A stretch of 33,501 nucleotides of DNA from Bdellovibrionota bacterium FG-1 (GCA_051382295.1 JBBCAW010000122.1:1-33501); one strand, 5' to 3'. Numbered from the stretch's first letter, positions 2 through 18,365 are shown. The notes: a model not told the origin generated them from the letters alone. Program-made: numbers and translations.

Positions 2-793
2 CAGCTCTCGTTTCAGATGCTGGCGGAGGTCGGTGAAGCGGCAGGGTTTGATTCCAATTTCGGCATTCCTTCTGGATCGCCCATCGTGCCCCCTATTGAA
101 AACCTCTTTCTTTTGCCCCTCGATATCAACTTTCATCACCTGTCCCCTGAGTCTTTTTATGCGAGATATGGCGATGATTTTCTGTTCGCGTCCGTCAGCA
201 AAGAAAGCTGCGAAAAGGCTTCAGCCCAAATCGAGGCGATTACGGGCGAATTGGGTCTTCACGTCTCAAAAGAAAAAAAGGCGGACCTGCTTTTATGCGG
301 CACGAAGAAGTCGCAGGTAGAACCCTTTACCGCCGCGCTCGGAGTCGACTGGCTGGGGATGAGAGTCCTCAGAAACGCCAAAATTGGAATCAAACCCTGC
401 CGCTTCACCGACCTCCGCCAGCATCTGAAACGAGAGCTGGATTCGCTGGTGACCCGAGCGTACCGCGAATTACGCGACCGTCCCGCGGCACGCAAGGCGA
501 TGATTCGCGCTGGAATCGGGGAACTCCTGAGCGGCGAACGGGCCACCGGCCTCACGGCTCTTTTGCATCAACAGCACAACGAGCAGCTTCTCAAGGAGGC
601 TGATTGCTTCGTTGCCGAACAGCTCGTGCGCGAACTCGCCCGCCGCGGAAAAACCGGGCGACGCGAAGCCTGGAAAATTTATCGAGAGCTCGCAGTCCCG
701 TCATTGCTTCAACTCTTTCGAAAGGCACATTACGATTCCTCCAACCGAACCCCCGAGCAAACCTATGAACGGAACATTGCTGAAGCGGCTTGA
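2..793 (+). CDS. Reverse transcriptase (RNA-directed DNA polymerase), 5'-truncated by the window edge; atypical, probably 'unknown group'-type
   Basis: Frame open from base 2. RT motif-4-like FGIPSGSPIVPPIENLFLLPLD, catalytic FYARYGDDFLF, then LGLHVSKEK and VDWLGMRV (motifs 6/7), followed by a basic helical thumb region. Confidence 0.88.
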   Translation, partial: QLSFQMLAEVGEAAGFDSNFGIPSGSPIVPPIENLFLLPLDINFHHLSPESFYARYGDDFLFASVSKESCEKASAQIEAITGELGLHVSKEKKADLLLCGTKKSQVEPFTAALGVDWLGMRVLRNAKIGIKPCRFTDLRQHLKRELDSLVTRAYRELRDRPAARKAMIRAGIGELLSGERATGLTALLHQQHNEQLLKEADCFVAEQLVRELARRGKTGRREAWKIYRELAVPSLLQLFRKAHYDSSNRTPEQTYERNIAEAA

Positions 794-3700
794 GCCAGGG
801 CTCAAGGCCACGGAAAAACGGCGACAAAGAGGACTCCTGGCTTGGTCTCCCCAGGCGTCCGACTTGGCGATCTACGTCCTCTTCAGAAGCCGAGGTTTTC
901 TCTGGCGGGGAACTTGCCGCCTCATTACCGACACGGCCGAAGCCATGGCCATTGCGTGGATCGCCTCGCCCATGCTGGTTCTTTCGTCCATGCTTCTGAG
1001 CGTCGCGGGCGCTCTCGCACGAGCCTCGATGGACGGAATCCTTTCGACCTACCGAAATGCCCGCCTCGAGGGGCGAGACCTCCCGCCCTGGGGAATCGCC
1101 GGCCTCTGCATGGCATCGGCGGCGGTCCCGTACGCGGCGGGTGCTCTTTACCTGCGCACAAATTGGTTTCAGCATCCCGACTACGCGTTTCTCTTCCTGA
1201 CGCGGGCCCTTGCCTTCACCGGCGAAATTTTTGCGACGGCTTGGACTGCGCCCATTACCGCCCGCCATCGAGTGTACATCCCGGGGTGGATTAACTCGCT
1301 TGAAGCAGCGCTGGCGTGCCTCACGGCCGCTGCGATCTCGATGATCGGCGGGCGTACGGGTTTTCTCGCGGCCCTGATCTTATTTATGGTCTTGCGCCTC
1401 GGAACGCAGGCCGGCATCGCCTGGATGACCGTCCGCCAATCGAAAAGTCGGAAGGCGAAAACGGGGCGGCGAGGTGAGCTTGCCTCGGGAACCGCTTTTA
1501 CTGGCTCTCGCGATTGGTTGCGCTGGGCTGCCGCGGCTTCGCACCACGTTCCCGCGACGATCTTGACCGCGCTGTTTTTACAGGAAGGCGCAATACGCCC
1601 CGTGTTTGCCCTTTGGCTTTTTAAAGCGGTCACCTGGAATCTTTCCATGCGGCCCCTCAGATCGCTCTATATCGACATTAGCAGAGCGCTGGAGCGACGA
1701 GACGAATCGAGAGCGGCGCGGCTCCTCTCCCGAACGACCGCATTTGGGCTGATCGGAATTGGAATCTGGACCCCAGCGTGGATCCTGTTTGCTCTACGCA
1801 CCCCGGGAGGTTTTACCACGGCGTTGATCCTGGCCTGGATCGGCGCGACCAGTGCGACCCGTCTGACCTGGACCTCCATGGCGCCGGGAGATCTCGATGC
1901 CGGTCTTCGAATACCCGCACTCTTGACCCGCATGGCCCAGGCCACTCTCATGGCTTGGCCTTGGCTCTCCGCAGCCCTGACTTCGCGATTCCCGGTTTTT
2001 TCGCAGCCCGACCCGCGCGTGATGGGCGCACTGTTACTCGAGATCTTGCTCCTGGTGCTGGCCGCAATGCGCTGGCATTCCCTCAACCGCACAGAGGCGC
2101 TCCGTGCGACACACCCCTTTGGTCCTCCTTGCGGGTTATGGGCGCCGCGACTTTTTCACGCAACCCGGGCCCTGATGCAATCGCCCGAAAAGCCAACCAG
2201 TCTTCCCGGCTCGGCTCTCCGGTTGCGTCTCACTCACCGCACGAGCGAGACGACCCGAGAGTTCCTAGAGCGGGTCGATACGATCCTCAATCAGAAAGCC
2301 TTCCTGCTGGCGCTCGATCCAGTTCATATCATCGCCTGGTTTCCTGAGGTACCCCTAACGAGCGCCGAGGAGCTTCACGTCGCCAAGGAAAATCTACTCA
2401 CGGCGCTCCCGCTTGAGGTCGAATCAATTGCGATCATCCCCGCTGAAAATCTGAATTTTCAGCAAGCACTCCACCCCGGAGACTACCACTACGGCCGAGA
2501 CGCCGGATGGCGCGATCACGAAGGACGCGCCCCTACAAATCCCCTGCTCATCTCCGAACTCTCTCGCCTCAGATTTGACAGCGAATGCGACTGGTTTGAG
2601 CACCTCCCCAGGCGTCGACTCCAGGTCGCAAGCCATACCCACCTACTGGCGATCGTCACCGAGGGGAGCTTCGTCGCCGCGAGCGAAGTGCCCATCGATG
2701 TCCCACCTGCGCTCCGTGATTCAAAATTCACGGAAGCCCGCACTCTGCCCATCGAGTTGACTGAACCGCAATTCAATCTCATCACGCTTCGGCTTTCAAA
2801 ATCGAAGATTGGCCGCACTTTCGAAAAAAACACCCCCGTTCCCCCGCAGGATCGCGACGAAGCGATTGCTTACTGCAAGAGCCAAAAAGGCGGCTTCAGA
2901 TGGCTCCGGCCGGCGAGAATCCGCGCGCTGGCACTCGCGCTCATTCTCTTCGCGGCGACTTTTTCGGTGCCGGCAAGAGCGGCTTCGGACTCTTGGCGCT
3001 TGGCTTGCGACTCCGAGGATAGTGCATTTCCCCTACTCTACCGAAGCCCACAAGGTAAAATCTATGCCATTGCGGATCTCAATTTTAATCTGAGCCCCCA
3101 TATTCGCACTACGTTTCTTTGCGAAAAATGGCTTGAGAGAAATCATTTTCTGCTCGATACAATCGAGGTCGAACCGCTGTACAGCCCCTCGGGCCCCGCT
3201 TTGGCTCGTCTCACCGGAAAATCGAGAGCGCTTTTACATCGGGCTTGTCGCCAGTCAAAAGAATGTAAACTCCGATTTCCTTATGGCGTCGATCTCAATC
3301 CCCAAGCGTGGCTGGATGCCTGGAATGAATTATGGAAAGGGTCACCCTTGGGTGCAGAGGCCGCGGTATGCGAGGGAGAAAGTTGGACCCACCTCCCTCA
3401 GTTTCCGGCTGAACCACTCAAAGAATCCCAGCGTCCCACCCTGGAGGACCTCGACTCCGTACACACCTGGTTCATTCCCGTGACGACCTACAGTGACGAA
3501 GTTGCAACGCTTATCGAGCATTCGGGCGAGGGCCTGGTCTGGGTCTCCACGCTGGCGATGAGTGCCGGCGAGGTGGCCAAGCTTGAACGCGCGCTCGATC
3601 GAAATCCGCAGGCTCGCGTGGTCCTCCTTTTTGATCTTTCCGCCGGACTTCATGAGGGCGCCATCTTTGAAACTCTCGCCCTGCGAAGAAAACAACTCTT

Positions 3701-4733
3701 GATATTACCCGTCTTTCGATCCCCGCGTTTACTTCGCTATTACCACGTCAAAGGCGCCGCCAGCGCCAGAGCAGGGCTGCTCTCCTTCACCTCCGGAAAT
3801 TTGAAAAGCTATGGGCGCCACGCGCTACTGGATCTCGGCTTCTCGGCCCACTCCGCCACGGCGGCGCGGGCCCTTGCGGGATCGCTCGCGCGAATCGCGG
3901 CGCAGGTCTGCACCGAAGCGCCTTATCTTGCATGCACCCTCAAGGCGAGGTTTGAAGACAACGACCCCCGCGCGGCCGAAATAACCACTTCATTTCGCGA
4001 GACCTGCGCGGCACTCGCAAAATCCGAAGAAGCCACCGCATTGGCCGGGCAATCGGCCGAAAACTCGCCCTTCTTCACCACCCAGGAGACTGATGTCACC
4101 CAGACAATAAAATCACTCATTAGCCGGACTACCCGTCGTCTGGATGGCGCGGTCCACCAGTTTAACGCCTCTTCCTTGGCAGAAGCATTCAGTCATGCCT
4201 CGGACCGAAAGCTGGAAACCCACCTCTTTTTAGGGTCCTCAGCCGCGATGGATCTCGCCGGCTGGGAGGCCCACGCAAAATTTCTGATCTCCGACTTCAG
4301 CACTCTTCTCTGGGGATCTGGTAACTTCACCTCCAATGGATTGTCTAAATCGTTGGAGATATTTTTCGTCACGCATCATCCACAGCTCTTAAATGCCGCG
4401 CAGTCCTATCTGGCCACTTTCTACGAGTTACAGGGCGCTTACCTGCCTCCTGCGTCTTGGCCAGTCGCCGTAAATCCTGATCAGGGACAGCCTCCGTTAG
4501 AGCAGGCATGGGCGTTACTAAAACCTTCGGAAGTTTATCGGTTGAAACTCAAACACCCCACCACTGCGAGTGGCCTTCACGCGGAAGGTCCCCAAGAATG
4601 GGCAACACTGCCTGAGCACGTCCCCACGCTGGTGCGATTACCTCAAGCCATGCTGTCTTGCCTCTCATTGCTCGGTCAGAAAAAACAGCGGCCGCTTCTC
4701 TACGGACTCGCAAGCGTGGAGCATTGTCTTTAA
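765..4733 (+). CDS. Large membrane protein: about 11-12 N-terminal TM helices, a soluble linker, an internal TM/signal-like segment and a C-terminal phospholipase D-superfamily domain
   Basis: ATG at 765 overlaps the RT stop. Repeated hydrophobic helices to about 2070. PLD half-motifs YHVKGAASA...FTSGNL (about 3744-3803) and HAKFLISD...WGSGNFTSNG (about 4272-4340). Confidence 0.8.
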   Translation: MNGTLLKRLEPGLKATEKRRQRGLLAWSPQASDLAIYVLFRSRGFLWRGTCRLITDTAEAMAIAWIASPMLVLSSMLLSVAGALARASMDGILSTYRNARLEGRDLPPWGIAGLCMASAAVPYAAGALYLRTNWFQHPDYAFLFLTRALAFTGEIFATAWTAPITARHRVYIPGWINSLEAALACLTAAAISMIGGRTGFLAALILFMVLRLGTQAGIAWMTVRQSKSRKAKTGRRGELASGTAFTGSRDWLRWAAAASHHVPATILTALFLQEGAIRPVFALWLFKAVTWNLSMRPLRSLYIDISRALERRDESRAARLLSRTTAFGLIGIGIWTPAWILFALRTPGGFTTALILAWIGATSATRLTWTSMAPGDLDAGLRIPALLTRMAQATLMAWPWLSAALTSRFPVFSQPDPRVMGALLLEILLLVLAAMRWHSLNRTEALRATHPFGPPCGLWAPRLFHATRALMQSPEKPTSLPGSALRLRLTHRTSETTREFLERVDTILNQKAFLLALDPVHIIAWFPEVPLTSAEELHVAKENLLTALPLEVESIAIIPAENLNFQQALHPGDYHYGRDAGWRDHEGRAPTNPLLISELSRLRFDSECDWFEHLPRRRLQVASHTHLLAIVTEGSFVAASEVPIDVPPALRDSKFTEARTLPIELTEPQFNLITLRLSKSKIGRTFEKNTPVPPQDRDEAIAYCKSQKGGFRWLRPARIRALALALILFAATFSVPARAASDSWRLACDSEDSAFPLLYRSPQGKIYAIADLNFNLSPHIRTTFLCEKWLERNHFLLDTIEVEPLYSPSGPALARLTGKSRALLHRACRQSKECKLRFPYGVDLNPQAWLDAWNELWKGSPLGAEAAVCEGESWTHLPQFPAEPLKESQRPTLEDLDSVHTWFIPVTTYSDEVATLIEHSGEGLVWVSTLAMSAGEVAKLERALDRNPQARVVLLFDLSAGLHEGAIFETLALRRKQLLILPVFRSPRLLRYYHVKGAASARAGLLSFTSGNLKSYGRHALLDLGFSAHSATAARALAGSLARIAAQVCTEAPYLACTLKARFEDNDPRAAEITTSFRETCAALAKSEEATALAGQSAENSPFFTTQETDVTQTIKSLISRTTRRLDGAVHQFNASSLAEAFSHASDRKLETHLFLGSSAAMDLAGWEAHAKFLISDFSTLLWGSGNFTSNGLSKSLEIFFVTHHPQLLNAAQSYLATFYELQGAYLPPASWPVAVNPDQGQPPLEQAWALLKPSEVYRLKLKHPTTASGLHAEGPQEWATLPEHVPTLVRLPQAMLSCLSLLGQKKQRPLLYGLASVEHCL

Positions 4734-4735
4734 AA

Positions 4736-5476
4736 TCACTTCACCAGTTCCTGCGAACGAAGAAAGACGGTACGTCTGAGTGCCATCTGCATTCTGGGAT
4801 CACCGGCCTGCGCGGCGAGTGCATCGCGAACGGCATCTTTCTGTTGGATCCATGAAGGCTCTAAATCAAGCAGACCATACAGAGCCAGGAGCGGTATTTC
4901 TGCCCCTGGCTCGTCCGCGCTCACGGCGTGGGCCAATAGACTCCGATAGATTCGCTTCAGCTCCACGTTCACTTCGCCCCTGCCTGGCAGCGCGAGCAAG
5001 AGCCTCACGAGCTGAACTCTCTCACGCCAGGCGCCCACCGGTAGGGTCTGAAATGCCCGATTTACCGCTGAAATCGTCTGAGCAGGCTGAGAGGCCAATT
5101 CGTGAAACGAACGAGTCGAGTAGGCTTGTTGTTCGCGATCCGATCCTTCGACGGCAGCCAGAATCGCAACCTGAGTCGCCAGGGTTTCTTGATTTTTAAA
5201 ATAAACTAAAATTTGCGGCAATAATCCCGCTGCAATCGGAAAGTCACGCTCTGTTAAAGTCCCGCTCCGCTCCTGCGGTATCAGAGGTAAAACCGCCAAC
5301 CAGCTCAGCGCATATTCGAGGCGCGAGGGCAGTCGATGCTGAGCGGATACCCGAGCATGAAAAAAATGCGGCCCTTTTGTCGCAAGAAGTGTCGTAAAAA
5401 TCCCAAACGAAAAAGCGACCCCTACCGACACCCAGCCAAATCGCCGCAGTCTTAGACGGACCCAGACCGAACTCAC
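4736..5476 (-). CDS. Hypothetical protein with N-terminal TM anchor and helical (HEAT-like) C-terminus
   Basis: GTG at 5476 overlaps the upstream TGA (GTGA coupling). Basic patch RLRLRR followed by hydrophobic FGWVSVGVAFSFGIFTTLLA; Leu/Ala/Arg-rich helices. Confidence 0.6.
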   Translation of the reverse strand: MSSVWVRLRLRRFGWVSVGVAFSFGIFTTLLATKGPHFFHARVSAQHRLPSRLEYALSWLAVLPLIPQERSGTLTERDFPIAAGLLPQILVYFKNQETLATQVAILAAVEGSDREQQAYSTRSFHELASQPAQTISAVNRAFQTLPVGAWRERVQLVRLLLALPGRGEVNVELKRIYRSLLAHAVSADEPGAEIPLLALYGLLDLEPSWIQQKDAVRDALAAQAGDPRMQMALRRTVFLRSQELVK

Positions 5477-7716
5477 ATAGACCCCCAGAAGGACCATCCC
5501 GCATCCAGATACATGGACTTCTGATCGGCCTTCTCATCTCCGATGGTATTGCCGTGTTCCGATCCTGACGGGCACTCGACGGCGTAATCGCCCACCCCCT
5601 TATAGCCGAGTTCAAATTTATTCTTCGGAACCCCGAAGGCGTCAGTTGTAATATTTCCGAACTCATCCAGAACCATATAGGCGCCATTAAGCGCTTTAAC
5701 CGCACCTACCGTGATCAGGGCCGTGCGAAAAAGATAATTGCGCTGTTCATAGCTCAGATTCCACAGTTCACGCGAAAAATAATCACCCGCGACATGTTTT
5801 GAAGTCGAACTCCCATACATGTCAAGATGCATGCGCTCGAGTAGTTGATCATATTTTGAACCCGTCGGATCGATTGCAAGGCGCACCACCGCGCCCTTGG
5901 GCAAGGAGGACACTTCAAAATCGCAGGCATAATATTCGCGCTTACCTTCGACAATTTTTTTAAAGGTCCCACCAGTGATTTTTGCCGCAAGAGGCTTGGA
6001 CCACACCGGGAGAATCTTTTTGTTACTTCCCAGGTTCGTATTTCCAAACGTGCCCACCACCGAAGAAACGTACGAATAAACCTGCAGATCCTTTTTAAGG
6101 TAGTCCGCACAAGCCTTATTCACGACATCCCCATTGACATGATCAAGGCCATGAGATCCCCAGGAGTAGTCCCATTGACTTGCGTCCCCCTGTCCGCCGA
6201 CTGAGTAGTTGCAAGTGTGACCTGGCAGCAGTAGCCTACCGAAAATACTGGCCGAGGTATCCTTGGGGACGGGAAATTGAATCCCGCTCGATGCGGTTGC
6301 GTCCTGAACCGGAAATTTGGCCGGCGCCCAGCCGCCTGGATAGTCAGCACTGGAATGATTCGGAGTCACGCCCCATTCATCCCAATTAAAGAGAGCGTAG
6401 TTTCTGGAAAGTGTGACGCCATAACCACTGATGAGCTTCTTCTGTACCGTGTTAAAGTAATATTCAAACGACGAGATCGTATCTTTCGTTTTTTTGATGA
6501 CAGCAGAGTGAGCTTTTACCTGCGCGTCGATGAGCTTCGTGTACTGCTCGGTAACTTTATTTATCGACTCTTTAAGAAAGTTCTGAAACGCGCTTTTCAT
6601 CTGGTACTCGAGGTAGTTTGCACCGGTTTTCCCCCCGGCAATTGCGCCAACAATAGAGACAAACGGCCCCGCCAGGTTTCCGGCCAACGCTCCATAGAAC
6701 GCAAACATCTCAGAAAGTCCCTGAAGTTCAAGCTTTCCGTCCGAGATTCCGGGCTCGATAAATACGTGATCCTTGTTGATTTTTCCATCAGCACCGAGGA
6801 TTTGCTCGGGCTTCAACCCGTCCAAAGAAATATTCTGGATCGACACATGCGCGTAAGCTTCGACATAAACCTTGGCTGGAAGGTTGTTTCCCCCGTAGCT
6901 TTGCAGATCGACAAAAGCCCACACACTCAAGGCACCGACGATCTTAAAATCGATCGTGACGGTATTGTCCTTATTCAGGGTAATCTGGGGAGCCGGTGCA
7001 GAGAGTAGATCCAGTTTCCACAGGTCCGAGATCAGGATATCGGCGCCGTATTGATCAATGTGGCAGACATAATTGGGATATTTTTTTCCGTTGCAGAAAA
7101 GATGAGAGTCCAACTTAAGGAGGGCATCCGCTGCATCCGTGAATGTTCCTTGAGGAACGAGCGATTCGATTTTGAGTACCGCTTGTTTTGGTTTTTGTAT
7201 GACGGTAATTTTGAACGGCGCACTGAGCCCTTCCATAGCTGTCTGCAAGTGAGTAAGAATATCAATAGCCGTGTCTCCATTGATCGGCGTATAAGAATAC
7301 TCGATACCATTCAGTTTAACCCAGTATTTATGTCCGACAGAGATGCCATCTTTCAGCGTGATTTCGTCATATTGGGGCGCCGCAAACGCGGCTACCATCT
7401 GCTTTGTAAGCTCGGCACGGGCGGTATCCAAGAGTTCTCGATAGGGAATCGTATACCCTCCATCCTGGGCACCCAAGAAAGGGGTTTGGTCATCAATTCC
7501 ATATAAGAATAACGGAGACGCATTGAGCTTTGAGATATCATCAGGAAGGGGCGGCAGACTTTGAATCGGCGCAAAAATCTGTGCGAGCGCCATGCCACTG
7601 ATATAAGGAAGCCGCGGCCCATCGTTGGCCCCATCGGCAGGATCAGCCTGAGTTGCCGTCGAGACCGCCGCTGAGGCCGTCAACAGTAGCGCGATCATTT
7701 TTTTATTGAGATGCAT
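5473..7716 (-). CDS. Large secreted hypothetical protein
   Basis: Long ORF. ATG 7716 is preceded by a GGGGG RBS and gives the signal peptide MHLNKKMIALLLTASAAVSTATQA. Alternative start 7758 overlaps the upstream stop. Confidence 0.75.
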   Translation of the reverse strand: MHLNKKMIALLLTASAAVSTATQADPADGANDGPRLPYISGMALAQIFAPIQSLPPLPDDISKLNASPLFLYGIDDQTPFLGAQDGGYTIPYRELLDTARAELTKQMVAAFAAPQYDEITLKDGISVGHKYWVKLNGIEYSYTPINGDTAIDILTHLQTAMEGLSAPFKITVIQKPKQAVLKIESLVPQGTFTDAADALLKLDSHLFCNGKKYPNYVCHIDQYGADILISDLWKLDLLSAPAPQITLNKDNTVTIDFKIVGALSVWAFVDLQSYGGNNLPAKVYVEAYAHVSIQNISLDGLKPEQILGADGKINKDHVFIEPGISDGKLELQGLSEMFAFYGALAGNLAGPFVSIVGAIAGGKTGANYLEYQMKSAFQNFLKESINKVTEQYTKLIDAQVKAHSAVIKKTKDTISSFEYYFNTVQKKLISGYGVTLSRNYALFNWDEWGVTPNHSSADYPGGWAPAKFPVQDATASSGIQFPVPKDTSASIFGRLLLPGHTCNYSVGGQGDASQWDYSWGSHGLDHVNGDVVNKACADYLKKDLQVYSYVSSVVGTFGNTNLGSNKKILPVWSKPLAAKITGGTFKKIVEGKREYYACDFEVSSLPKGAVVRLAIDPTGSKYDQLLERMHLDMYGSSTSKHVAGDYFSRELWNLSYEQRNYLFRTALITVGAVKALNGAYMVLDEFGNITTDAFGVPKNKFELGYKGVGDYAVECPSGSEHGNTIGDEKADQKSMYLDAGWSFWGSM

Positions 7717-7750
7717 TGTCGCCCCCGTGTTTCTATCAGTGAGAGATTGA

Positions 7751-8722
7751 TCATTCATTCACCGGAACCAAAAAAGGCTTAGCCCCCGACGAAAGCGAAC
7801 GAAGGACCAACTTGCCACGGAGCGGAATCGACCTGATTTTGCCTTGATTCGCGCGCATTTGCTCGCGAGCGGCTTTGATCGCAGCCCCCATCTGCTTCGC
7901 GCTGAGTGCCCGCTGTCCCACCGCCGCGATAAAATCCGCATTGTTTTGCCTACGAAGTGAAGCGTCGGTCTCCATCTCGTTATAAAAATTCAGGGCCATC
8001 AGGCGCACGCGAAACGACCTCCGCTCGTTGGCCCTTGAGGTTTTGGGTAGGGCGGCGCCGATCAGGATGGCCCTGCCTTGTGCCAGGTTCCCAGAAATTT
8101 TGGCCAGCCCGCCCGCAAGTCGGAGCAACTCAATGGTCTCCTTGGCCGAACTGGTCCCGACCCGCACGAGGGCGGTTTCGATATCCGCGAGGGCCTGGGT
8201 TGCATTATTTTTGAGACTACCGAAGTACGAAGTGCGAAAGGCATAACGATGATAATGTCCCGCCTGCCCGCGAATACTGTATTTGGCCCCGGGTTCATCC
8301 ATACCGGTCACTATTATACGACGAGAGGCCGATTTTTTTCGGCGAATCACTTCGTCGCGGAAGAGCTGGTATCCGACCTGCTTCATGAGTTTTGTCGAAG
8401 TAGACAGCCCCGCGTAGTGCTCTTGAAAATCGGGTGTCGCGAGCAATTGATACTGGGCAAAACCTTCGAGCCTTTTATTCTTCGTCAGACGAGAGATCTT
8501 GAGAGCACGAAACCCCCCTTTTTGTCCGAGAATCCGGCGAATTGCCGCTTTGTCCGAGGACTGAAGAAATTCTGCGACATCGGTCGTCACTTTCACTTGC
8601 TCGCGCACCGTGGACTCGTCGGCATGATTACACCCCGCCAACGATGCGAGAATGATCACGCCAATCAACGCGCGCTTCATCAACAACATTAACAACATTT
8701 TCCACTCTGAAAAGTGCGACAT
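7751..8722 (-). CDS. Hypothetical lipoprotein
   Basis: MKRALIGVIILASLAGC lipobox. AAGGGG RBS 8 nt before ATG 8722 (alternative start 8680). Basic, helical body. Confidence 0.7.
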   Translation of the reverse strand: MSHFSEWKMLLMLLMKRALIGVIILASLAGCNHADESTVREQVKVTTDVAEFLQSSDKAAIRRILGQKGGFRALKISRLTKNKRLEGFAQYQLLATPDFQEHYAGLSTSTKLMKQVGYQLFRDEVIRRKKSASRRIIVTGMDEPGAKYSIRGQAGHYHRYAFRTSYFGSLKNNATQALADIETALVRVGTSSAKETIELLRLAGGLAKISGNLAQGRAILIGAALPKTSRANERRSFRVRLMALNFYNEMETDASLRRQNNADFIAAVGQRALSAKQMGAAIKAAREQMRANQGKIRSIPLRGKLVLRSLSSGAKPFLVPVNE

Positions 8723-9081
8723 CCCCATCACCCCTTGTATGGCTATTAAGAATAGTTTATTTTACTTGATTATTTTAGTCAAGCATTGGAGATCAACTAA
8801 TATTATCAATAAATTACATGCATTTATGTGACTTAATTTAAACGGCGACTTATGGAATAGCGGGGTCAGACCTCCACTACCCGCCCAGGATTGGGCCATT
8901 TATTTGAAGCCGTTGTCTTTACAGTTTGTGTTTGCGTTTAAGGCCCATAAGCTCTTTCGCAAGATGAGCTGAGACGCCTTTCATTTAGATTTGACCACGG
9001 TTTGTCTTGACCGGATTGTCTGATTCGATTCTTGAGATTTATAAATAACCGTTTAAACTATTTATATGGAACAGGGGATTT

Positions 9082-14538: not shown

Positions 14539-15261
14539 ATGCCACTTCGAATTCTCTACCAAGATCCCCACCTAGTCGCAGTCGATAAGCCCTCGGGATT
14601 TCATGTTCATCCCCCTGAGGACCAAGCCATTCGAATTCGTCCGTCCATCAATTGCCTCCACATTTTGGGCCGCCAACTGGATCAGTATCTTTACCCCGTG
14701 CATCGAATCGATTGCGCAACCTCGGGAGTTCTCATTTTTGCCCTGGATCAAGAAACCGCCCGACAGCTCAGCCAAGGGTTTCAAAATCGTTTGATCAAAA
14801 AGACCTATTACTGCGTGGTTCGAGGGTGGATGCCCGACTCGCTCACCATTGATCGCCCTTTAAGCTCCGAAAATGACCCGGATACCTATATGCCGGCTTC
14901 AACCGCTTTTTTGCAAATTTCTCAACTTGAGCTGCCACTTGCGATCGGTCAACACCCCACCGTCCGATATTCATTGCTTCAAGCGCAACCAGCCAGTGGA
15001 AGATACCATCAAATTCGGCGGCATTTGGCGGGACACTCCCACCCGATTATCGGCGATGCTATCCGGGGCGATGGCATTCACAATCGACTCTTTCGTGACC
15101 AGCTTCAAATTCCTTCGCTTCTTCTCAAAAGCCAACGGCTTGAATTCACTCATCCCCGTACGGGCGAGCCGTTAAGAATTGAATCGCGATGGACCAAGAA
15201 ATGGCATAAAATTTTCGATCTGTTCGGAGTTTGTCCGGTTAGAATGAGTGAGCCAGTTTAA
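14539..15261 (+). CDS. RluA/TruC-family RNA pseudouridine synthase (TruC-like)
   Basis: VAVDKPSG, PVHRIDCATSG (catalytic Asp), GRYHQIRRHL..HPIIGD; no S4 domain. Confidence 0.9.
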   Translation: MPLRILYQDPHLVAVDKPSGFHVHPPEDQAIRIRPSINCLHILGRQLDQYLYPVHRIDCATSGVLIFALDQETARQLSQGFQNRLIKKTYYCVVRGWMPDSLTIDRPLSSENDPDTYMPASTAFLQISQLELPLAIGQHPTVRYSLLQAQPASGRYHQIRRHLAGHSHPIIGDAIRGDGIHNRLFRDQLQIPSLLLKSQRLEFTHPRTGEPLRIESRWTKKWHKIFDLFGVCPVRMSEPV

Positions 15262-15760
15262 GCCTCACCACTCGCCCCAACTCAAACGACAAAACGCCAC
15301 CCAGTAAGCCACCTAAAACCCAGGCGAGGCCCAAAGTTAAAACCCGCTCTCCGCTGAGGCAAACAAACACTCCCGCAGAGAGCAAGGTCATTACACTGAG
15401 CTGCAAGACCCTTGAATTCCGAATGACTCTGATCTCTTCCGAGCGCAGTACGGCGCTTCCGATTAAACCACTCGCACCCAAAAACACCGAACCACAGCCG
15501 ACCATGCAGCCCGCCTCACCAAAACGCATAAACAAAGCCATCAAACCCATGCCGGGAAATAAAGAAATACCAAATTGCGGACAGAACAAAAGAACAAGAG
15601 CTCCCACCAACAATTGAATCACTCCCAGCTTCGAAAAAACGCGCCATACCGAAGGATTGAGATCCGCTCGGACGGTTGCCAAAATCTGGTCGGTGCGTGC
15701 GGCAGGCGGAAGGGCTTCCGGGCTATTTAAAAATTCTGAATACATCGTATCGGGTTTCAT
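15239..15760 (-). CDS. Multi-pass membrane protein, putative anti-sigma factor
   Basis: ATGA overlap with the ECF sigma stop; several TM helices with Cys (LFCPQFG, GCMVGCG). Confidence 0.65.
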   Translation of the reverse strand: MKPDTMYSEFLNSPEALPPAARTDQILATVRADLNPSVWRVFSKLGVIQLLVGALVLLFCPQFGISLFPGMGLMALFMRFGEAGCMVGCGSVFLGASGLIGSAVLRSEEIRVIRNSRVLQLSVMTLLSAGVFVCLSGERVLTLGLAWVLGGLLGGVLSFELGRVVRLKLAHSF

Positions 15761-16281
15761 TGGACTGACCTCAACTTTTTCACGGCTCTGCTAATGAGTT
15801 GGCGAACATTCACCGGAGACGTGCTGAGTTTTTCCGCGATTTTCTCAAAAGATAGATCTTCGGAATATCGGAGTTCAATGGCCTGCCTTTGGGTCACGGA
15901 AAGGACGGCCAAATCAGGAAGTATGTGTCCTTCTTCTTGCACTCTTTCTTGGGCATTCTCGATGGCGACGGGATCAGCGTCCTCTTGAGTTCGCTGTTTT
16001 TTTCGAACGGCATCAATCAGGGTGTTCCGACAAATCGTAAAGAGCCACGGTAAAAAGCCAAAAGCCGGATCATAACTCGCGCGCGACTGGTGAAGTTTGA
16101 GAAAGGTCGCTTGAAAAACATCGTCCGCCATGGCTTGATCTCTCAGTTTTTTAACCAAAAACCCGTAAACTTTACGCGAGTGGCGTTGGTAGAGTGCCGC
16201 AAAAGCCGCCTCATCGCCCTGCTGGTACGCCGTCATCAGGGCCTCGCTACTCGGGTCATTTACTGGGTTCATCGCATTCAC
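15757..16281 (-). CDS. ECF RNA polymerase sigma factor
   Basis: GDEAAFAALYQRH, ADDVFQATFLKL, F.PWLFTICRN (region 2); LS..QRQAIELRY.EDLSFEKIAEKL (region 4). Confidence 0.92.
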   Translation of the reverse strand: MNAMNPVNDPSSEALMTAYQQGDEAAFAALYQRHSRKVYGFLVKKLRDQAMADDVFQATFLKLHQSRASYDPAFGFLPWLFTICRNTLIDAVRKKQRTQEDADPVAIENAQERVQEEGHILPDLAVLSVTQRQAIELRYSEDLSFEKIAEKLSTSPVNVRQLISRAVKKLRSVQ

Positions 16282-16375
16282 TCTATCATACTGAGGAATA
16301 CGCGCCCCCCCTCTTTTGTGACAATTCTCAAAAAAGACAATTATTATGCACTCTTAGGGGGCCAGACCGAACACA

Positions 16376-16414
16376 ATGACGCAGGCCTCAACCAAAAGGT
16401 AGGGACTACCTTTT
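16376..16414 (+). repeat. 39-bp direct repeat, copy 1 (upstream of the triterpene cyclase)
   Basis: ATGACGCAGGCCTCAACCAAAAGGTAGGGACTACCTTTT, identical to 18327-18365. Confidence 0.95.
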
Positions 16415-16438: not shown

Positions 16439-18325
16439 ATGCTTTTTCGAATTCTGCTCGGGTTGGCACTGACGGTCTCAAGCGCTACGGTTAGCATCCC
16501 CTGTAGGGGTGATTCGCTAGAGCTTTTGGACCGAGCGGTGCGGACCGCACGCACCCACGTGATGGCATCTAGAACCGATAATCAGTATTGGAATTTTCCA
16601 TCGTATTTGGGCACTCACTATATTTCGCAATATGTTTTGCTATCAAAATGGCTTTCGATTCCAAAATCACAACTCGATCCAGAAAGATTAAAGGACCTCG
16701 TTCTAAGAACCCAACTTGCTGACGGTTCTTGGTACGCGGTTTTGGACACCAACGTACACTCAGGTGACCTCAACGCCACCATTCTGAATTACTGGGCCCT
16801 CAAAGCGATGGGACTGGATCCCACTTCCACTCCTTTGGCGCATGCACGACAGTTTATTTTGAAACATGGCGGTCTCGAGAAATCCTCTCTTTTTATCAAA
16901 ATCGTGTCGGCCCTTTTTGGAAACTACCCGTGGAACTCAATTCCTAAGATTCCTTATGCGTTATTTGTGGAGTCCTCGCCTCTCAATTATCATCAGTTCG
17001 CCCAATGGGTGGGGCCCCATCTCATGCCGATCGCCTATCTGCGTGAGTTACGAGTTTTTAAAACCTTGGGCCCCGATTATAAAATCGACGAACTTTGGGC
17101 GAACCGTGACAGCCTCCAAAAATTTCGAGGTAAGCCGCTCAGCCGAGATCAACCCTCGTTACTTTCTACCCATACTCTTCTGATTAAAAAGATCCTCGAG
17201 AAACAAAGGCCCGGTGGAAGCTGGGGTGGGTATACCAGCGCCACACTTTTCACCCGAGTGGCCCTAGCGGATTATGTACAGATCACTCGCCACCTTGTCC
17301 CAGAAATCACGACTGCGATAGATAAAGCCCACAACTTCATCGAAGGCATGTTCTTCGAATCAGGGGATCAAGCTTACCTGGGCGTCGTCGATGATGGGCG
17401 AATCTGGGATTCCGCATTAATCGGTATCGCAGCCTTGGATTCCGGCGAGCCGCTGGACCAGCTTAAAATAACCGCTGATTTTTTAGTTTCCAAACAGACC
17501 CCAGAAGGGGGGTTCCCTTTTGGCTTTGACTTCGAGTATGCGCCTGACACGGACGACACCGCCGAGATTTTACTTTTTCTTTCGCGCTTTGGAAACGAAT
17601 ATCAGGACCCGGTTTCGCGGGCCAAAGACTGGCTTTTTCGGATGCAAAATAATGATGGCGGCTGGGGTGCATTTGACCGCAATAATACGGGCAACTTTTT
17701 GCTCGCCACGTTGGCCAAGGATTTTCAAGATTCAGCCGACTTGTTTGACGAAAGCTCCCCTGACGTGACCGGACACATTTTGGAAGCATTAGGGACCTTG
17801 GGTGATTCAATTCATCATTCAGCCTCAGTCGTGCAGGCCGTCGCCTATTTACGAAACTCCCAAAACCCCGTGATGGGTACATGGACAGGCCGGTGGGGTG
17901 TCAACTACCTTTATGGAACGAGTGCGGCAGTCGTCGGGCTCATCAAGGTCGGAATTTCGCCTGAAGATCCTATGCTTGTTCACGCCCTTCAGTGGTTGAT
18001 GTCCAAACAAAATCCTGACGGCGGATTTGGTGAAACCACACTTTCGGACATTGACGCCTCTCTGGCCGGAATCGGAGTCAGCACCGCGAGTCAAACAGCT
18101 TGGGTTCTCATTGCTCTTATTGAGAGCGGAAACATAAAATCGGCGGCTGCCACTCGAGCCGCCGATTATCTCGTGCGCGAGTGTTCGCCGCTGGGAGTTT
18201 GGAAGGATCAATCGGCGGTGGGCACGGGACATCCCAAAATCGTGTATATGAACTATCCTTCGTATCCTCATGCGTTTCCGCTAACGGCGCTGGCGCGGTA
18301 TCAATACAGGATGCGAACGAAGTAA
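16439..18325 (+). CDS. Squalene cyclase (SHC/STC family, tetrahymanol-cyclase-like) with N-terminal signal-like peptide
   Basis: Catalytic APDTDDTA; QW repeats (TQLADGSW, KQRPGGSW, MQNNDGGWGAFD, KQNPDGGFGE); GRWGVNYLYGT; STASQTAW; GTGHP...FPLTALARY. Confidence 0.92.
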   Translation: MLFRILLGLALTVSSATVSIPCRGDSLELLDRAVRTARTHVMASRTDNQYWNFPSYLGTHYISQYVLLSKWLSIPKSQLDPERLKDLVLRTQLADGSWYAVLDTNVHSGDLNATILNYWALKAMGLDPTSTPLAHARQFILKHGGLEKSSLFIKIVSALFGNYPWNSIPKIPYALFVESSPLNYHQFAQWVGPHLMPIAYLRELRVFKTLGPDYKIDELWANRDSLQKFRGKPLSRDQPSLLSTHTLLIKKILEKQRPGGSWGGYTSATLFTRVALADYVQITRHLVPEITTAIDKAHNFIEGMFFESGDQAYLGVVDDGRIWDSALIGIAALDSGEPLDQLKITADFLVSKQTPEGGFPFGFDFEYAPDTDDTAEILLFLSRFGNEYQDPVSRAKDWLFRMQNNDGGWGAFDRNNTGNFLLATLAKDFQDSADLFDESSPDVTGHILEALGTLGDSIHHSASVVQAVAYLRNSQNPVMGTWTGRWGVNYLYGTSAAVVGLIKVGISPEDPMLVHALQWLMSKQNPDGGFGETTLSDIDASLAGIGVSTASQTAWVLIALIESGNIKSAAATRAADYLVRECSPLGVWKDQSAVGTGHPKIVYMNYPSYPHAFPLTALARYQYRMRTK

Positions 18326-18326
18326 T

Positions 18327-18365
18327 ATGACGCAGGCCTCAACCAAAAGGTAGGGACTACCTTTT
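18327..18365 (+). repeat. 39-bp direct repeat, copy 2 (downstream of the cyclase)
   Basis: Identical to 16376-16414; begins after a single intervening base following the cyclase stop codon. Confidence 0.95.

Follow-up and report, generated by a model that had tools for sequence, protein, structure and literature searches.

The window analysed here, a 33,501-nucleotide stretch from Bdellovibrionota bacterium FG-1 (JBBCAW010000122.1:1–33501), carries at positions 16439–18325 (+ strand) a gene whose assignment to a bacterial branch of the squalene-tetrahymanol cyclase (STC) lineage is well supported by sequence comparison. STC provides tetrahymanol in place of sterols in oxygen-starved protists and gut fungi. 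Judged from our trees, eukaryotic STC has no closer known relative than the family to which the encoded protein belongs, and probably derives from it; this family bears on both the origin of the eukaryotic enzyme and one-step tetrahymanol synthesis in bacteria. This branch is apparently undescribed in published text, although part of it is present in a published data set.

According to the accessible portions of earlier studies, the bacterial donor of STC was not identifiable and no STC occurred in the metagenomes then available (Takishita et al, 2012; PMC3317845). The same portions indicate that STC was placed near Firmicute cyclases (Santana-Molina et al, 2020; PMC7306690), that a bacterial donor was assumed but not named (Wiersma et al, 2020; Bouwknegt et al, 2021), and that STC was listed among ciliate genes from poorly known prokaryotes (PMC13198582). 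McShea et al (2025; PMC12324236; PMC12414744), in the text accessible to us, term the STC group “from microbial eukaryotes”. The supplementary alignment of that study (PMC12414744), as far as it was accessible, has about nine prokaryotic or metagenomic sequences alongside the STCs, including Bdellovibrionales, Myxococcaceae, Verrucomicrobia, Methylotetracoccus oryzae and SG_bin7. The SG_bin7 sequence is P0074 in our trees and the others, with WP_139558993 of M. oryzae, were assigned by eye; members of the family apparently stand in these data without comment in the accessible article text. Our literature search turned up no description or assay of a bacterial STC; the 2023 review by Hoshino and Villanueva and Banta (2015) may mention homologs.

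Gene product and phylogenetic position

The gene is an intact open reading frame of 628 codons with no internal stops, and its product matches the Pfam families SQHop_cyclase_N and SQHop_cyclase_C. Pfam, NCBIfam and AlphaFold describe an STC-like class II triterpene cyclase with a beta-gamma double alpha-barrel. The DTDDT motif, the QW-type repeats and every segment quoted in the original prediction are present in this reading frame. The AlphaFold model, computed with a 30-sequence alignment, has a pLDDT of 91.8, and the closest structure is that of Alicyclobacillus acidocaldarius SHC (TM 0.85, 31% identity). Upstream, a candidate sigma-70-like promoter at 16318–16347 (+) is a consensus match only (10/12). 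This is the sole cyclase-family gene that we found in the host genome.

The query scored 474.6 bits against TIGR04277, the NCBIfam STC model, for which the cut-off is 500. Five of the eight scored proteins of the eukaryotic STC clade also fell below this value, with Stygiella at 426, Paratrimastix at 467 and Piromyces at 491, whereas T. thermophila THC1 reached 1334; the cut-off is biased to ciliates. The corresponding SHC model (TIGR01507) gave 345.5 bits, under its cut-off of 431, and the OSC comparison (TIGR03463) gave 152.8 against a cut-off of 851. By BLASTP, the query scored 365–442 bits against nine named eukaryotic STCs and 249–275 bits against the six SHCs among the matches listed. 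Its identity to eukaryotic STCs was 35–40%.

The best 120 of 1796 homologs were 40–52% identical to the query, and those named among the matches listed came from Bdellovibrionota FG-2, Bdellovibrio sp., Pseudobdellovibrionaceae, SG_bin7, Phycisphaerae and Pseudomonadota. We count approximately 150 apparently bacterial proteins in this family, the named ones being largely from Bdellovibrionota, and prokaryotic origin is shown only for the few named proteins and nine genomes. Orthologs occurred in 4/24 genomes of the host's own family, which also contained the closest homologs (51–53% identity), and in 8/301 genomes of the phylum including the host (E<1e-140). A search of the ESM Atlas returned generic cyclase clusters only. 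Two family proteins, P0136 (1171 aa) and P0096 (901 aa), carry the STC-like domain behind a long N-terminal region, and one genome (G018) has a pair of closely related STC-like genes, each on its own contig (L085 and L095). Same-family genomes also encode DCT-motif OSC-like proteins (L090 in G022 and L091 in G014), so that SHC, OSC-like and STC-like cyclases are all present within the host's own family.

The named eukaryotic references for the trees were T. thermophila THC1 (Q24FB1), T. utriculariae, Stygiella (BAL50000), Paratrimastix (BAL49999), two Piromyces proteins, Anaeramoeba, Furgasonia and one EukProt protein; the outgroups were ordinary SHC and SqhC, nearly all that the related-locus search gave. 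A FastTree phylogeny of 225 rows (222 distinct) contained a single clade (support 99) made up of the query, about 155 proteins of bacterial type and the eukaryotic STCs, the last as a sub-branch (99). In this tree P0104, first labelled bacterial, was placed among the eukaryotes, and it was regrouped after the tree had been seen. IQ-TREE (LG+G4) on a 58-row subset recovered the joint clade, apart from SHC, SqhC and OSC, at 100/100 with a stem of 0.55, and a 99/95 node set three bacterial-type proteins outside the rest. The eukaryotic STCs formed a 100/100 clade with the query outside, which disfavours a bacterial recipient of a eukaryotic gene. A quick tree of 32 rows under a C20 mixture also contained the joint clade (99) and the eukaryotic STCs (99). 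The stem of the eukaryotic STCs measured 0.23–0.27, and two proteins, P0005 and P0008, were closer to them than the query in two trees, with weak support; P0132 is a basal member of the family.

AU tests, run on 32 rows, rejected grouping of the query with SHC (p=2.6e-22), as well as grouping of eukaryotic STC with Bacillus SqhC once the bacterial STC-like family was included (p=1.9e-54). Because of the latter result, and because the bacterial family is much closer, the link of STC to Bacillus is displaced. Placement of all bacterial members as one sister clade of the eukaryotic STCs was not rejected (p=0.103); since all free trees favour nesting of the eukaryotes within the bacterial members, this nesting is preferred, not proven. 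A lone bacterial recipient of a eukaryotic gene was ruled out by FastTree and IQ-TREE. The proposal that the protein is a bacterial sister, donor or recipient of STC therefore stands as to a bacterial relative of STC, but the query is neither alone nor the immediate sister or direct donor of the eukaryotic enzymes (AU p=0.002), and the role of recipient is disfavoured. The phylogeny that had been suggested as a check places the query in the STC clade, away from SHC clades, and the predicted affinity to STC over SHC is borne out by the trees (99 to 100/100), AU tests, BLASTP bits, and the alignment columns and indels described below.

Active site, indels and N-terminal leader

The catalytic DxDD motif (D370, D372 and D373; 17546–17557, +) was located by alignment and is of the kind that protonates alkene substrates; it occupies the place of the OSC-type DCTA motif, which is absent. 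The equivalents of SHC residues W169, W312, W489, Y495, Y609 and Y612 are retained in the alignment. By contrast with SHC, residues F601, F605, I261, T173, E93 and R127 are replaced in the query by H, V, Y, H, L and S, respectively. Eukaryotic STCs show like changes at F601, F605, I261 and T173; they also lack the SHC residue at E93 and R127, mostly with residues other than those of the query. The first two positions lie in a GTGH motif (18221–18244, +), in which His598 aligns with SHC Phe601 (Nostoc 608) and Val602 with SHC Phe605. A histidine at Nostoc SHC position 608 is the STC marker according to the accessible part of file S1 of Takishita et al (2012; PMC3317845). This marker was found in 143/153 bacterial members and in none of the 26 SHCs.

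We defined 27 STC-diagnostic columns as those in which at least 17/20 eukaryotic-clade proteins have the same residue and SHCs a different one. The query matched 21 of the 27, compared with 20–27 for the eukaryotes, a median of 19 for the bacterial members, 0–1 for SHC and 2–6 for SqhC; only 1/18 SHC-diagnostic columns was matched. The query departs from the eukaryotic majority at F361 (Tyr in 16/20), G192 (Tyr in 15/20), Y61 (Phe in 15/20), P599 (Arg in 15/20) and S267 (Val in 14/20), all of which are cavity sites or close to the cavity. Paratrimastix is the sole named eukaryotic STC with both P599 and Y61.

Three indels are shared with eukaryotic STCs. The segment W190–Q256 (17006–17206, +) is ~20 residues shorter than in SHC, with 67 residues in the query, medians of 68–72 in eukaryotic STCs (65–72 over the groups that share the shortening) and a median of 89 in SHC; the missing stretch is presumably the membrane-inserting helix of SHC. 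W323–F361 (17405–17521, +) carries a 15-residue deletion and measures 39–40 residues in the query and eukaryotic STCs versus 54 in SHC and SqhC. The loop F412–D442 (17672–17764, +) has a three-residue insertion (31 residues in the query and eukaryotic STCs versus 28 in SHC), which the AlphaFold model renders as a short helix. Judging from this model, the inserted helix may be a substitute for the SHC membrane anchor.

Hydropathy and the model both delineate a signal-peptide-like leader (approximately residues 1–16) and a short disordered linker (to about residue 23) at 16439–16507 (+). The N-terminus contains an uncharged 9-mer with a mean hydropathy of 2.7, and the model has a separate helix at residues 2–13 and a disordered linker at 14–23 (pLDDT<50) ahead of the fold. 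Orthologs L083–L086 have a leader of like kind. A hydropathy rule scored a signal-like N-terminus in 95/154 bacterial members, 9/9 named eukaryotic STCs and 17/20 eukaryotic-clade proteins versus 0/26 SHC and 0/11 SqhC. Because this rule cannot score short N-termini, we also applied a second, simpler one, by which 93/154 bacterial members and 0/92 further SHC controls bore a leader. The original prediction, which held such an N-terminus to be unusual for SHC, was accurate on this point, and the feature extends to every named eukaryotic STC. Since the leader occurs in bacterial members and eukaryotic STCs and not in SHC or SqhC, it is a trait of the lineage. Export is nonetheless not universal in the family, as 59/154 bacterial members lack the leader by the hydropathy rule, and one large bacterial sub-clade is without it; P0074 is one leader-less member. 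As the hydropathy rule and the model concur on a hydrophobic leader, we infer either a cleaved Sec signal or an uncleaved anchor.

All named eukaryotic STCs, P0383, P0161, P0141, P0257, P0154 and P0275 among them, have a signal-peptide-like N-terminus, and our literature search found no paper on this feature of the eukaryotic enzymes. Signal-like leaders also occur in other divergent cyclase-family proteins from related genomes (L092 in G016, L093 in G037, L115 in G167, P0179, P0206, P0227, P0230 and P0379). Several of these have no clear DxDD, and PF00494 had no match in G016 or G167. By sequence, such proteins possibly represent further exported families.

Genomic surroundings and squalene supply

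No neighbouring gene was common to the window and any of the loci of seven relatives (0/7), and hpn genes were absent from the 43 flanking proteins scanned near relatives. A conserved operon or partner gene was rejected, the neighbours in relatives being unrelated. The cyclase gene is flanked by two identical copies of a 39-bp REP-like hairpin repeat. The upstream copy lies at 16376–16414 (+), and the downstream copy (18327–18365, +), between convergent stop codons, is likely a bidirectional terminator. We found 28 related copies genome-wide versus none in three shuffled-motif controls; they were mostly intergenic and often directly after stop codons, and contig C10 has a further identical pair, spaced by 4265 bp (35720 and 39985). 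None of the nine Y1-transposase hits in the host genome had a repeat beside it. The relatives' loci contained a loose copy in 1/7 only; given this and the 28 dispersed copies, a dedicated att or cassette site is not supported. The flanking repeats may have helped to mobilise the cyclase gene, yet they look REP-type.

The repeat family also occurs on contig C18, which supports the binning of the cyclase contig. At C18:9095–19420 (L229), the best matches were MamA, MamQ, MamB/M, several MamE/HtrA-like proteins and a magnetochrome protein, all the Mam-like matches being under curated cut-offs. This mamA/Q/B/E/M-like cluster suggests that the host may inhabit low-oxygen settings at an oxic-anoxic interface.

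Elsewhere in the window, 15239–16281 encodes an ECF sigma factor and an overlapping 173-aa reading frame (candidate anti-sigma, no family), divergent from the cyclase; an ECF sigma factor is likewise found near the cyclase at locus L131. The contig starts with a reverse-transcriptase fragment (1–793; weak RVT_1, Drt2 and group II hits) and a 70-nt inverted repeat of 96% (1–70 versus 371–440) that may be an assembly fold-back. The region 612–8731 looks like a defence island; it encodes a 1373-aa protein whose C-terminal part is PLD-like (DrmC-like), and the three reading frames that come next (253, 761 and 326 aa) matched no Pfam or NCBIfam family.

The 25 reading frames scanned in the window include no hpn or squalene-synthesis genes, as had been stated from the sequence, and this now extends genome-wide in a draft that is 97.7% complete with 5.0% contamination. 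In the host genome, a profile search gave no squalene/phytoene synthase (PF00494), tblastn with the synthases of two relatives found no squalene synthase, HpnE and HpnH had no match over cut-off, and neither squalene epoxidase (PF08491) nor curcumene synthase (PF10776) was found. Because the genome is a draft, a squalene synthase could be missing from the assembly. The host encodes the mevalonate pathway, with HMG-CoA reductase and one polyprenyl synthase present and DXR not found.

Against a background of 126/301 phylum genomes, PF00494, which also covers carotenoid synthases, occurred in 19/19 carriers of a GTGF-type SHC versus 4/8 carriers of an STC-like gene in the same sample. The 19 SHC carriers are not independent since 11 belong to one family, and the genomes with divergent cyclase hits (G016, G102, G167 and G209) were excluded from both counts. 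A ninth STC-like carrier, G007 (79% complete), had no PF00494 match. Among all nine carriers the match was not found in five; it was present in 2/7 whose cyclase has a leader and in 2/2 without one. In G018, the PF00494 copy adjoins a flavin oxidoreductase gene.

Proposed function and comparison with known cyclases

We consider it moderately probable, on sequence grounds, that the gene encodes a stand-alone, exported cyclase converting squalene to tetrahymanol in one step, and that eukaryotic STC arose from or beside its bacterial family. In such an enzyme, DxDD would protonate the terminal alkene of squalene, and the changes of Phe601 to His, Phe605 to a small aliphatic residue, Ile261 to Tyr and Thr173 to His would remodel the far end of the cavity. 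The last ring would then close as a six-membered ring and the cation would be quenched by water, giving tetrahymanol. The leader would direct the protein through Sec to the periplasmic membrane face or outside, where it may attach to the membrane via its remodelled surface. Because searches of the host genome gave no squalene synthase, the substrate would be foreign squalene from prey, neighbours or detritus. Tetrahymanol could serve the bacterium as an oxygen-independent membrane stiffener, and with its leader the gene would already have been suited to ER targeting upon transfer to a protist. Within the joint clade, T. thermophila THC1 yields tetrahymanol in yeast (PMC7440791, accessible portion); among cyclase relatives, the accessible text of PMC12324236 indicates that the product is labile.

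More tentatively, and as something that we would not yet expect to hold in full, squalene-less bacteria, largely Bdellovibrionota, would have widespread exported STCs that act outside the cytoplasm, making tetrahymanol from squalene scavenged or obtained from prey, and one member, leader included, would have been transferred once to a protist as the founder of all eukaryotic STCs. The fossil biomarker gammacerane is attributed mainly to ciliates that feed on bacteria (PMC6351664), and ths is the marker used in genomic screens for bacterial tetrahymanol producers (PMC12583986), as far as these sources were accessible. Because the screens use ths, a one-step bacterial route would escape them. 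If bacterial members make tetrahymanol, gammacerane could also derive from bacteria. If the exported-STC reading is true, a second, Ths-independent bacterial route older than the eukaryotic one would exist, gammacerane could be a trace of predation by bacteria rather than by ciliates, and an exported cyclase uncoupled from squalene synthesis would be a new bacterial way to membrane triterpenoids.

It is also conceivable, though we think it unlikely, that the protein is an ancestral-type cyclase of the STC lineage whose product is still a hopanoid, either diplopterol or diploptene, or else a mixture or a truncated tri- or tetracyclic alcohol, with tetrahymanol specificity arising only on the eukaryotic stem. 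SHC mutants without Phe601 give truncated products, which counts in favour of this. So do the separate stem of the eukaryotic clade (0.23–0.27) and its cavity residues absent from the query, as well as the early-branching metagenomic cyclases of the SHC clade that gave hopenes or hopanol in the accessible portions of McShea et al. However, of six tested SHC-clade cyclases of that study sought in its accessible supplement, the one traceable there is an SHC of ordinary sequence. The shared stem already bears all three indels and most of the STC-specific changes, the equivalent of His598 is retained in nearly all bacterial members (143/153), and searches of the genome and of the surroundings of relatives gave neither HpnH nor any other hpn gene.

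Decidedly improbable, in our view, is action on another linear isoprenoid (a polyprenyl product of the host itself or a terpene from the environment), or use as a secreted tool that alters the membrane lipids of prey or host and does not supply the bacterium's own membrane. The carriers in which the squalene synthase family was not found (5/9), the mevalonate pathway and single polyprenyl synthase of the host, the export leader together with the lost SHC membrane segment, and the want of a conserved partner gene all fit this picture. DxDD and the C30-type cavity residues are nevertheless those of STC, no curcumene synthase (PF10776) was found, and squalene is used by eukaryotic members with a like leader and indels.

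That the bacterial genes came from eukaryotic STCs, or that this copy is a passenger, either mis-binned or in decay, is very improbable and largely refuted for this gene: patchiness (8/301 phylum genomes), 0/7 relatives with common neighbours, identical flanking repeats and the survival of bacteria as a separate sister clade in the AU test (p=0.10) are outweighed by a eukaryotic clade that is monophyletic without the query (100/100), a broader and deeper-branching bacterial set, closest homologs (51–53%) in same-family genomes, a 39-bp repeat family present on further contigs of the host, the mam contig C18 among them, and an intact reading frame with all catalytic residues present.

The favoured one-step, exported cyclase can be set beside four known systems. 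With eukaryotic STC it shares a 100/100 clade, His at Phe601, an aliphatic residue at Phe605, Tyr at Ile261, His at Thr173, three common indels and the hydrophobic leader. It differs in being a bacterial gene outside the eukaryotic crown, with divergent residues at F361, G192, Y61, P599 and S267, in a host in which no squalene synthase was found. The fold, DxDD, cavity aromatics and QW repeats are common to A. acidocaldarius SHC (TIGR01507), whereas Phe601, Phe605, Ile261, Glu93 and Arg127 are all replaced in the query, which has lost a ~20-residue segment, carries a leader and has neither an hpn cluster nor a tight link to squalene synthase. Bacillus sporulenol synthase SqhC resembles the query in lying near the base of the STC lineage, lacking Phe601 and having Tyr at Ile261. 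Unlike the query, SqhC has no marker His, no leader (0/11) and none of the STC indels (54 and 29 residues versus 39 and 31 for the second and third segments), and the host genome gave no match to PF10776, the curcumene synthase that partners SqhC. SqhC is also without Phe601 and yet is no STC; this, with the residues at F361, G192, Y61, P599 and S267, speaks against an unqualified STC assignment of the query. Tetrahymanol would likewise be the product of the bacterial two-step route; that route requires SHC and Ths, whereas the only cyclase-family gene of this host is STC-like.
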